From Octopus vulgaris (Eukaryota), in the NCBI GenBank assembly GCA_951406725.2, contig OX597829.1:22134001-22198000 (forward strand): a DNA stretch of 64,000 nucleotides. Direction: 5' to 3'. The number at the start of each line of letters is the position of its first letter. Position 1 is the first letter of the stretch. Both the position numbers and the translations under genes were made by a program. This document shows, piece after piece, positions 9,520 to 62,249 of this stretch. The notes under the pieces were generated by a model. The model searched no databases. It had not been told where the DNA came from and saw only the letters and a list, made by a program, of their open reading frames with translations.

Positions 9520-11063
9520 GGTGGACAAGTCTTCTTGAGAACTATGTATTTCCAGTCATCCTAGTCCTTTGTCAAATCTACTGTGAGGTTCTGGGTCCTG
9601 AAGTTAGTCTTCACCATTTCATTCCTTGACTCCCTTAGCTTCACTCTTCCACAAGCTCTAACCACATTAAGTGATTGGCACATCTTTATGCAACTGTCCT
9701 TATCCATACATTGTCCATACCAGCACAATCTTCTTTCCTGCACACTACATGTGACATCTCTTATGCCCATTTTTCTATACATCACTTCTATACTATGTCT
9801 TTCATACACACTCACATTGCTCATCCAACAGAGCAGGCTTGCTTCGTTTTTTTTTTTTCCAAGACTTCTTACGTCCTTTGTGTTTAAAACCCATGTCTCA
9901 GAGCCATGCAGCATTGCACTTCTAACACAAGCATTATTACAATCTACCTTTCACATTTGTTGCTAGCAGCAGTAGTTTCTCCCTGATCTTTCTCTGACCT
10001 GTCCTTACTCTGGCCACTATGCTTTTGGAGTAACCTCCTCCCTTACTAATTACATCTCCCTAATAACAAAAGCTATCAACTAATTTTAGTGAGCCATCCA
10101 GGCATTCAGGGAAGTCCATTTCTGGTGTGTTCATAGTATGTACTGCTCCAGTGTGTCTATCATATATGAAGCTTTTGTTCTCTGCTAGTCTGCCTGAGAT
10201 TCTGTTACATCTCTTTTGCCCATAGCTTACATTGGGTACCTTGTATCAAATTTATAATTTCTCCTTTTCTACATATTGAATAAGGCTGTTTCACTGAATG
10301 TACTAACTTCCTGTCTCCTTTCCTACATTTTAAAACCTTTGCCTTTACCAAATGTATTTTAAGACCTCTCAATTTTAGGTTTTAGTTTCCATGCCTGACA
10401 TTTCCTCTCTAATTCTTCTATAGATTTAGCTATGAGAATTAGATCATTAGCACATTGGAGTTCCCATAGATAACCAGTCTTAAACTGTTCTGTGATTCCT
10501 GTAGGACTATTATGAATGGGAGGAGACTGAAAACTGAACTTTGATGGACTGCAAGCATTTTGCTAAACTCATCATAGAAGTTGTTGACTTTCATTTATTG
10601 CATTTTTGTACATGGCTTGTACAGCTCTCACAAGCCATATGCCAACATCTAGCTTCATTAAGGACCAGATTCCTGTATGTGGTACCCTGTCAAACACCTC
10701 CAAATCAACGAAAGCCTGGAATAATGATTTACTATTAGCCAAGTATTTCTGTTGCAGTTGCCTCACTAGGAATATTGCATCCGTAGTACCTTTACTGGAT
10801 AGGAAACCTAGCTGCATCTCATTTAGTTCTAATCTGTCATGGGCCAATTGAGCTATGACCCTTTCTTGACCTTCATAATCTGATTCAGTAATTTGATTCC
10901 TCTATAATTGCTTCTCTCTAAGGCATCTCCTTTGCTTTTGTAGTACCCTAAGGTGATACTGCTTTGCCAATCTTTCTCCAACCTGTCCTTACTCTGGCCA
11001 CTATACTTTTGGAGTAACTTCCTCCCTTACTAATTACATCTTAGTAACAAAAGCTATCAACTA
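9520..11063 (-). mobile_element. RTE-clade LINE, 5'-truncated and decayed
   Basis: RT motifs GFLSSKGTTDAIFLVRQLQQKY...AFVDLE..DRVP (10572-10847) and C-terminal MLHGSETW...RRLCWYG...GR (9561-9914). Confidence 0.9.
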
Positions 11064-13894: not shown

Positions 13895-14493
13895 TAGTTA
13901 GTTAGTTAGTTAATTTGGCTCAAAAGCAAATAGCAAGGCCATGTAGGGGGACATGGAGTTAAGTACAGGGTGGTGTTCATGTAAAGAGTTCAGGCCACTT
14001 GAGGTCCAGGGAGGCTTTGAACAAAGCGGTCGTCGGCATCTTCACCATCTCGTCTGGCAGCTTGTTCCACGGATCCGCAACCCGGACGGAGAAAGCTCCT
14101 CTCCTTCGATTGAGATGAAATCGTTGCAGGTAGAGCTTTTCGGAATGACTCCGCAGCCGACGCTCCGGAGCAGGAGTGAAGAACAGCTCTTTCGAGAGGT
14201 TACACTTCCCGCTTATGATGTTGTGGGTGAGAATGAGATCACCACGGCGGCGGCATTTTTCAAGAGAACAAAGGTCGAGCGTCCTCAGCCTTTCTTCGTA
14301 GGACAAATTTTTGAGACCATGAACCATGCGGGTAGCCAGCCTCTGGACTCTTTCGAGGTGCTGTATGTCTTTGAGGAGATAAGGAGAAGAGGCTTGAATC
14401 CCATACTCCAATATGGGTCTCACTAGCGTGACATAGAGTGGCAGGAATATGGCTGCTGTGAGCATTCCGAATGACCGTCGAATCAAAAACAGA
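13895..14493 (-). mobile_element. Young 5'-truncated CR1-clade LINE
   Basis: Uninterrupted ORF2 C-terminus (LYVTLVRPILEY...LERVQRLATR...SYEERL...RRRGDLI...FSVRVADPWNKLP, stop at 13977), short 3' UTR, (TAAC)n tail and 7-bp TSD ATGTCGT (13888-13894, 14494-14500). Confidence 0.92.
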
Positions 14494-14524
14494 ATGTCGT
14501 ACTCAACATTACATCTTTCATTAT

Positions 14525-14916
14525 TTCTTTTACATGTTTCAGTCATTTGACTGCAGCCATGCTGGAGCACTGCCTTAAAGGGTTTTAGTTGAAGAAATCA
14601 ATCCCAGGACTTATTCTTTGTAAGCTTAGTATTTAGTCTATCGGTTTCTTTTGCTGGACTGCTAAGCTACGGGGACGTAAACGCACCAACATCAATTGTC
14701 AGGTGATGGGATGACAAACACAGACACAAAGACACTCACAATTATATATATATATTTATATATGACAGGCTTCTTTCAGTTTCCATTTCCAAATCCATTT
14801 ACGAGGCTTTAGTCAGTCCAAGGCTATTGCAGAAGACACTTGTCCAAGGTGTCACACAGTGGGACTGAACCTGGAACCATGTGGTTGGAAAGCAAGCTTC
14901 TTACCACACAGCAATG
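14525..14916 (-). mobile_element. SINE family A, near full length
   Basis: Reverse complement of the family A sequence seen elsewhere in the window. Confidence 0.85.
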
Positions 14917-31335: not shown

Positions 31336-31605
31336 GCTGCATACATATGCCCATGAGCATATGGCGTAGTGGTTAAGAGCGCATGCTACTAACCCCAAGA
31401 TTCTGAGTTCAATTCCAAGCAGTGACATGAACAACAACAATAATAATAATAATAACATCGAAAAATATCTTAGGAATGAGAATCCAGGTTCGAAATTTCC
31501 CCAAGACACCTGATGAAGGCTGGAGGGTATATCAGCCGAAATGTTGTGTTAACAACAAACAAGATGAGGAGAAATATCCATCAAATGTAAATAATGTAAA
31601 TAATG
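31336..31605 (+). mobile_element. tRNA-headed element carrying a hammerhead motif, with 12-bp TSD
   Basis: A box TGGCGTAGTGG (31362), B box GAGTTCAATTCC (31405), (AAC/AAT)n linker, hammerhead, (AATGTAAAT)n end; TSD TGCATACTTCCA at 31324-31335 and 31606-31617. Confidence 0.85.
31505..31550 (+). ncRNA. Minimal type I hammerhead motif
   Basis: GACAC-CTGATGA-A-GGCTG/10 nt/CAGCC-GAAA-TG-TT-GTGTT. Stem I 5 bp, stem II 5 bp, vestigial stem III (ATGT, one CpG-type change from palindromic ACGT). Confidence 0.7.
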
Positions 31606-44048: not shown

Positions 44049-44090
<42 letters not shown>

Positions 44091-44229
44091 GTGTCAAGAA
44101 GAAGACCCAAAGGTGTCAGGTAATGCTGATTAAGTGCTATGGACAGACTATAGTTAAGCTCCAGGTTCAGTGATTATGTGAATGAGGAGTCCAATGCAGG
44201 TCATATATCGGCATGCGTATATATAAAAA

Positions 44230-44853
44230 AATTAATAGAATGAGATAAAAATCCAAGGCTGTGAAAGATTTCAGAACATTTATAAAAAGGTCTAGCAGCT
44301 GTTTCCAGGATATTTTATATATCCCTTCATGGGAGATGGTGTGAGAAAATGGATAAGCAATAGTTATTCTGGATAAGATATGAAATAGTGAGTGAAGTGG
44401 AGGAATGAAAACAGACGTGAGATATGCAGGGATATTGTATCTGCAGTTCTATTATTTAGGCAGAATGGTATACATATAAGTTTCCTGTACCTTGTGTGTG
44501 AGTTCCAATAGTATTTAAAATTGGTCATTCCAAGCATAGAGTTTGTATATGGTGGATTCAATAACACTCTGCAAACTCTATGCTTGGAACTTACACAAAA
44601 GGTACAGGAAACTTATAATGTAAACTAAATAATGGAACTGCAGATACAATATCCCTGCATATCTCATGTCTGTGTTCATTCCTCCACTTCACTCTCTATT
44701 TCATATCTTTTCTAGAATAACTATTGCTTATCCATTTTCTCACATTGTCTCTGATGAAGGAATATATAAAATATCCCGGAAACAGCTGTAAGACCTATTT
44801 ATAAATGTTCTGAAATCTTTCACAGCCTTGGATTTTTATCTCATTCTGTTAAT

Positions 44854-44854
<1 letters not shown>
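44230..44854. mobile_element. Palindromic hammerhead-bearing element (~625 bp)
   Basis: AATTAATAGAATGAGATAAAAATCCAAGGCTGTGAAAGATTTCAGAACATTTATAAA... is mirrored at 44798-44854; arms pair to ~44545/44571 with two arm-specific indels; TA repeats on both sides. Confidence 0.92.
44747..44794 (+). ncRNA. Minimal type I hammerhead motif
   Basis: GTCT-CTGATGA (44751-44757)-AGGAATAT/ATAAA/ATATCCCG-GAAA (44779-44782)-CAGCTG-TA (44789-44790)-AGAC. The mirror copy at ~44290-44337 is mutated in the core (CCCATGA, CT). Confidence 0.8.
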
Positions 44855-44903
<49 letters not shown>

Positions 44904-61665: not shown

Positions 61666-61929
61666 TACATACATAGATACATACATACACAGTTTATTGT
61701 TCTGTTAAGGTAAGATTAACAAAAAAATGTGCTTGCAGTTTATATTCTTTTTTCCCTACATATATTTCACTATTGCCATTATTTGCACCCTCTGTAGTGT
61801 TCCATGTGCAATTGTTAGCTCTAATCTCACTGGTACCAGATGTATATCTAGCTGTACACACAAGAAATATCTAATATATATATATATATATAGATATTGG
61901 TATCCAGAAGACCCAAGGTAGCAGGTAAT

Positions 61930-61977
61930 GTCTCTGATGAAGGAATATCCCTAATATCCCAGAAACCACTGTAAGAC
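61930..61977 (+). ncRNA. Minimal type I hammerhead motif, same family as 44747
   Basis: GTCT-CTGATGA (61934-61940)-AGGAATAT/CCCTA/ATATCCCA-GAAA-CCACTG-TA-AGAC. The downstream ~70 nt are homologous to 44795-44854, then (TA)n. Confidence 0.75.
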
Positions 61978-62249
61978 TATCTTTCTCTTTATAAATGTCC
62001 TGAAAAATCCACACAGCCTTGGCTTTGTTTGTCTCATTTTATTTAATATATATATGTATATATACAATGATGCCAATCTGTCACAAGGTTTACCCACTTA
62101 CAGTAGAATAGACTGGAATAATATGAAATGAAGTGTTTTGCTTAAGAACACAACATACCACCAGTATTAGAATCAACAGCATAACACCCTAACTTCTAGG
62201 CCACACAGCTTAACTCTCACAAATGTATATATGCACATATATATGTACA

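Follow-up and report, generated by a model that had tools for sequence, protein, structure and literature searches.

A Palindromic 764-bp Insertion in the Octopus vulgaris Genome Probably Consists of Two Head-to-Head, 5'-Truncated 3' Ends of a Hydra-Clade Penelope-Like Element

Introduction

The closest described relatives of the repeat family analyzed here are the EN+ Penelope-like elements (PLEs) of the Hydra clade. According to the descriptions in Craig et al. 2021 (PMC8557442), these elements possess a C-terminal GIY-YIG domain and the DKT, CxCx5C, and CxxC/CxH motifs. They also carry a hammerhead close to the 3' end, insert into (TA)n, and have an inverted truncated copy and a tail at one end. 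All of these features recur in the studied family. The combination of an inverted truncated copy and a one-sided tail has been published both in this work and for the Penelope element of Adineta vaga (PMC3846280). The latter forms head-to-head inverted pseudo-LTRs, one of which is shorter, with an optional tail on one of them, as in the family under study. For the Poseidon element PAc of Anolis, Frangieh et al. 2024 (PMC11167929) report that a Penelope-type protein cuts and extends both strands and that two start sites define the tail. Common to PAc and the studied family are a tail located past the hammerhead at the pseudo-LTR–ORF junction, an AT-rich target, and the use of both strands.

The hammerheads of PLEs have been described as minimal motifs (Cervera and de la Pena 2014, PMC4209133), with a 7-bp helix II, a 4-bp helix I, an extra base after core position 9, and a palindromic helix III; the motif considered here has the same layout. 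The same source describes pairs of PLE hammerheads on opposite strands, 100–700 bp apart. Metazoan non-LTR retrozymes (PMC7229834; bioRxiv 10.64898/2026.07.22.740005) are likewise small hammerhead repeats related to PLE ends. Unlike these retrozymes, as they are characterized in the cited works, the studied repeats form no head-to-tail monomer array, and the repeat unit terminates an ORF-bearing element.

Several other features distinguish the studied family from the described systems. Its short motifs resemble by eye those of the octopus family Hydra-1_Obim given in the supplement of PMC8557442, but neither its hammerhead motifs nor its tail motifs occur in the part of that supplement used for comparison, and the two were therefore treated as different families. 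Compared with Hydra-1_Obim, the studied family has its own 151-nt tail and an N/T-rich linker insert; in the majority of copies, C occupies core position 4 of the hammerhead, and GAAA is preceded by an extra purine. These two hammerhead features, the frequent U4C change and the purine added between helix II and GAAA, also distinguish this hammerhead from those presented in PMC4209133. Published tails are 30–40 nt long. The Penelope element of A. vaga, as presented in PMC3846280, has a 31-bp tail and readable target duplications, whereas here the target is a microsatellite and no duplications can be read. Poseidon PAc belongs to another clade and, according to PMC11167929, has adjacent start sites, whereas those of the studied family, judging from the ends of its copies, would lie about 150 nt apart.

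The analysis concerned a stretch of 64,000 nt of O. vulgaris DNA (contig OX597829.1, positions 22,134,001–22,198,000; hereafter, the window), in which the initial annotation, made from the sequence alone, had noted a 625-bp palindrome with a hammerhead in each arm. All positions below are those of the window unless a locus is named.

Results

The ungapped inverted repeat comprises two arms of 230 nt (44230–44459 and 44625–44854) with 93% identity; when gaps are allowed, the symmetry of the arms continues to a junction at 44554/44555. The arms differ at 20 of 269 aligned pairs, and the right arm carries two deletions relative to the left one, 9 nt near 44625 and 25 nt near 44584, the latter between two TTGGAA repeats. 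The whole insertion has a length of 764 bp (44091–44854) and lies between (TA)n microsatellites, recognized as tandem repeats at 44069–44090 and 44854–44895, which represent the target site. No target duplication is readable in these microsatellite flanks.

Comparison with family copies assigned the outermost left part of the insertion (44091–44229, minus strand, 139 bp) to the family tail, of which it contains about 136 of the 151 nt, with 94% identity to the tail of a natural copy. It is followed by the left arm (44230–44554, minus strand), which corresponds to the final ~325 nt of the 3' pseudo-LTR region, inverted and 5'-truncated. Beyond the head-to-head junction (44554–44555) lies the right arm (44555–44854, plus strand), a 5'-truncated 3' end of the element that ends at the short end of the family. 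Its start is situated 10 nt further towards the 5' side of the element than the left arm reaches. Thus, the near end-to-end inverted repeat originally noted is a real palindrome, but the tail, present on the left arm only, breaks the end-to-end symmetry.

A search of the genome with the 625-bp palindrome gave 4754 first-look candidates, 40 of which were scored; most of these copies were single arms. The flanks of the copies revealed two kinds of 3' ends in the family: a short one, which borders on (TA)n, and a long one, which carries the 151-nt tail. In locus L029, a GIY-YIG-like frame was found upstream of the 3' unit. When 25 loci were picked by the GIY-YIG region alone, the 3' unit was located downstream in the same orientation in about 15 of them. 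The order RT–thumb–linker–GIY-YIG–UTR–3' unit was observed in 20 long loci, many of which also contain an inverted 3' piece on the 5' side. In the near-full copy L171, the tail continues directly into the ORF start, and the DKT and YRDD motifs are recognizable. The DKT position reads SDKTG in L171 and SNKTG in L100; the RWK position, covered by L171 only, is occupied by a stop codon.

The linker motif CxCx5C appears in family copies as CNCRPGTIC, and the CxxC (CKLC) and CxH (CNH) motifs flank conserved residues (E, N) of the endonuclease; CCHH is absent from the family coding remnants as judged by eye. The similarity with GIY-YIG in Pfam was weak (E 0.0013–0.036, below the cut-off), and RVT_1 was matched in a relative only (E 0.0044, also below the cut-off). 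No unbroken parent element was present among the copies examined, and it is in decayed copies that a single ORF with RT followed by a C-terminal GIY-YIG is seen. The protein search yielded 5 matches among 632 candidates, the best of which, with 79% identity, belonged to Octopus bimaculoides. Other features of EN+ PLEs found in the family are the hammerhead in the 3' pseudo-LTR, 5' truncation, an inverted adjacent copy, and a tail at one end. The (TA)n flanks of the insertions agree with the insertion preference of the Hydra clade. Since the DKT, CxCx5C, and CxxC/CxH motifs match the marks set out in Craig et al. 2021 (PMC8557442), the family was assigned to this clade. Judged by this motif comparison, on which the placement rests, each arm represents the 3' end, with pseudo-LTR and hammerhead and cut short on the 5' side, of an abundant PLE of the Hydra clade.

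Several additional observations were made in the family copies and their relatives. The N/T-rich insert of the parent ORF linker, located between the thumb and the endonuclease (e.g., L052:1545–2534), resembles the N-rich inserts in rotifer Penelope ORFs. Proteins P0003 and P0006 of two octopus species, named "GATA zinc finger domain-containing protein 14-like", are PLE RT/linker fragments. At the 5' truncation of the family copy in L029, there is an inverted RT fragment (L029:3240–3960), apparently of another PLE family; the copy was possibly inserted into or beside another PLE, and this fragment was not used as evidence. A palindrome of ~570 bp (L028:6392–6959) adjoins one more family copy.

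The presence of the tail was scored in 42 inverted pairs, of which 14 were excluded for an eroded end. One tailed and one untailed end were found in 25 of the 28 scorable pairs (binomial p 1.3e-5). Two of the other three pairs have no tail, and the third, L171, was called two-tailed but has a far end of the short kind. Unrelated insertions may have been joined in one pair (L138). Over 25 pairs, the two arms agree in their lineage markers (mismatch of 11% against 33% in permutations, p 0.0005), which indicates that both arms come from one source lineage and lends no support to two independent templates. Among 24 long/short pairs, at least 9 have a tailed arm that is 5'-shorter than its partner, and in the analyzed insertion it is shorter by 10 nt; therefore, in such pairs neither arm can simply have been copied from the other.

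According to these data, the 764-bp segment very probably (about 0.9) represents two head-to-head, 5'-truncated 3' ends of a Hydra-clade PLE in (TA)n, one of them tailed, likely originating from a single old insertion. In the proposed course of events, the GIY-YIG endonuclease would cut both strands of the AT-rich target, and from each DNA end the reverse transcriptase would copy RNA belonging to a single source lineage. The starting points would be the tail end for one copy and the short end, ~150 nt upstream, for the other. After roughly 330–460 nt, the two copies would stop and then be joined at their truncated ends, and the hammerheads would be passengers of the pseudo-LTR. We infer such two-ended priming on one RNA lineage from the comparison of the arms and from the data presented in PMC11167929. 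No strand difference in the start site was observed in that source, so the one-long/one-short rule is not given by those data alone. After its formation the insertion decayed, and it is most likely functionless.

The identity of the segment would be the same if the inverted arm arose when one cDNA folded back or primed itself, or by self-priming on an antisense template, with the endonuclease trimming one end at the AT-rich short-end site. This origin of the arm is possible but rather unlikely. Fold-back or self-priming was proposed in PMC3846280 and endonuclease trimming, as the source of the tail, in PMC8557442. Such a mechanism would account for the one-tail rule, the shared lineage markers, and the nearly symmetric centres of several pairs (e.g., −257/−257, −277/−281, and −127/−125). 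Against it stand the pairs mentioned above in which the tailed arm is 5'-shorter, and a 3-nt indel for which the arms can differ in either direction (6 vs. 2 among the 8 discordant pairs).

This indel is located 4–7 nt past the predicted cut of the hammerhead, just past helix I. The three nucleotides are present in 73 and absent in 50 of 137 family arms, the other 14 having other lengths. After the removal of 3 of 25 pairs because of other indels, the arms of one insertion were discordant in 8 of 22 scorable pairs; for another lineage indel, discordance was noted in 1 of 22. The 3-nt indel looks like a recurrent copying slip at the foot of helix I; it may also result from slippage after insertion or from mixed source repeats. 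A speculative and rather unlikely possibility is that a working hammerhead with C4 and the extra purine stays folded during copying and would cause the reverse transcriptase to slip by 3 nt in ~40% of arms. Taken with the one-long/one-short rule, it would mean that a dimeric Penelope enzyme copies one RNA from two starts 150 nt apart.

The hammerhead motif of the right arm (44747–44794, plus strand; minimal type I, predicted cut after 44790) was found by a regular expression and by eye, with CUGAUGA, GAAA, the cut triplet GUA, and a helix III that is self-complementary. The Rfam analysis gave no hammerhead among 48 matches at E ≤ 1 in the window. The motif begins with a helix I of 4 bp, followed by the core CUGAUGA (44751–44757) with an extra A, and by a 7-bp helix II with one A·C mismatch and an extra G. 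GAAA occupies 44779–44782 and the palindromic helix III 44782–44789. The motif conforms to the core consensus CUGANGA/GAAA/NUH. The extra G occurs where the G10.1–C11.1 pair would directly precede GAAA, and helix III, with only 1–2 bp, is not a stable one. For the motif alone, the predicted energy of the hammerhead fold is −1.5 vs. −6.1 kcal/mol for the MFE structure. The left motif (44290–44337, minus strand) has the core CCCAUGA, with G5 replaced by C, and an altered, broken cut triplet.

The core-mutated mirror hammerhead reported for the left arm was thus confirmed. The right-arm hammerhead, described as intact, does have the core, GAAA, and the cut triplet, but the mismatch in helix II, the extra G, and the short helix III depart from an intact structure. 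A hammerhead had also been expected in transcripts of either strand; only the plus strand has a whole core, and the sense motif of the minus strand is broken. By prediction, neither motif can cut at this locus. As background, minimal dimer-type hammerheads, according to PMC4209133, show no cleavage as monomers and little as dimers, and U4C is reported in PMC3088659 to reduce hammerhead activity in vitro.

Most family copies have C at core position 4 (62 of 73 rows). In 75 arms not picked by the hammerhead pattern, the core CpG was represented by CG in 51, TG in 11, and CA in 10 cases, and the neighbouring CpG behaves alike (46/12/11). Since the left arm has C at core position 4, the canonical U of the right arm is probably the product of CpG decay of a CCGAUGA source. 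Against this, a hand count among the first 100 matches listed gave 41 TG vs. 10 CA, and both arms have TG in 4 of 20 fetched loci, which indicates that CUGAUGA sources existed as well. For 50 loci chosen by the hammerhead pattern, this choice makes the conservation profile of the hammerhead unusable.

Two further hammerhead-like sequences are located in the window. At 61897–62045, there is a mini head-to-head stub of a sister family (2216 first-look candidates), in which the last 34 nt of the tail are inverted and joined to a direct hammerhead end. The sister family has the CUGAUGA core, the same helices I–III, and a different loop II; the extra purine before GAAA is common to it and the studied family. 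The motif at 31505–31545 (plus strand) belongs to another family, contains CUGAUGA-A, a 5-bp helix II, and GAAA, and lies inside what looks like another repeat.

Folding of the full transcripts of the two strands predicts a rod (−439 and −406 kcal/mol), in line with the long rod initially proposed for either strand. In the full plus-strand transcript, the arm complementary to the right hammerhead is synthesised first, and the predicted rod (−439 kcal/mol) is more stable than the hammerhead fold (−373 kcal/mol) by ~66 kcal/mol. If transcribed, the insertion would form a rod burying the ribozyme. This energy gap, the broken left core, and the ordinary divergence of the arms lend no support to the suggested competition between a working ribozyme and the rod. 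Outside CpG, arm-to-arm divergence is 18/261 (6.9%), the mean of 25 pairs being 8.0%.

A co-opted function of the insertion as intronic double-stranded RNA (an ADAR or Dicer substrate) of a plus-strand host transcript appears improbable. It would be consistent with the predicted rod and with the mismatches compatible with G·U pairing, which lean to the plus strand (11 vs. 3). The p value of this lean is 0.057, other pairs lean as strongly (1 vs. 10 and 1 vs. 8), and there is mild heterogeneity (p 0.03); the lean would be accounted for by a regional mutation bias between the strands. The ordinary divergence of the arms also speaks against co-option, as does the result that no host gene was found among the 58 of 140 open stretches of the window that were scanned, a scan that short exons could escape. 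In family copies, A>G and T>C changes are equally frequent (0.0268 vs. 0.0264); thus, there is no sign of edited (A-to-I) templates. Elsewhere in the window, the open frames 9564–9950, 10575–10901, and 13980–14597 (minus strand) read by eye like remnants of LINE reverse transcriptases, and Pfam gave no match for them at E ≤ 0.01.

A very improbable explanation is that the palindrome is a unit element (MITE-like, a rod or circular RNA, or a retrozyme) that moves as a whole. Its near-symmetric shape, TTAA at both arm ends, and the strong predicted rod are suggestive of such a unit. On the other hand, the centre junction has 1 exact match in the 2.8 Gb genome, and at two mismatches it has 8 matches vs. 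6 for the control. With a 26-nt hammerhead pattern, 215 exact matches were obtained in the genome (446 when CpG variants are included). The first 30 pattern matches fall into 28 insertions; in 14 of these, an inverted partner lies no more than 1.5 kb away, and every centre is different. Loci with two arms are overrepresented in this fraction, since the pattern has about twice the chance of picking them up. Thus, there is no fixed inner structure common to many copies, as in MITEs or other palindromic units. Neither are there non-coding monomers in head-to-tail tandem, as in non-LTR retrozymes, and the 3' unit terminates an ORF-bearing element. TTAA, a target typical of Sola/Kolobok/piggyBac-like DNA transposons, is here internal to the family sequence, with the tail coming next, and a DNA transposon of this kind was also rejected.

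The initial annotation had offered two readings, a unit mobilising as a rod-like RNA and an inverted pseudo-LTR product of Penelope-type integration, with the fixed or variable state of the centre to distinguish between them. The centres vary, which points to an integration by-product; together with the single junction, this refutes the rod-like unit, while the ORF-bearing long copies and the layout published in PMC8557442 support the pseudo-LTR product. Finally, an assembly fold-back artefact is extremely improbable: 20 substitutions and two deletions separate the arms, a divergence already held to argue against fold-back, each arm has its own mutations relative to the family, and the arms finish at the two typical ends of the family.

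Discussion

The head-to-head inverted-stub layout is already well known, and the analyzed locus is ordinary decayed Penelope debris. As retrotransposon remains in a described layout, the single locus is of little importance. The family, in turn, provides many natural insertion products that bear on the origin of inverted ends and tails in PLEs. The one-tail rule, the common lineage of the arms, and the 3-nt deletion discordant between arms are testable in vitro. Such palindromes also enlarge the pool of possible double-stranded RNA in the octopus genome.
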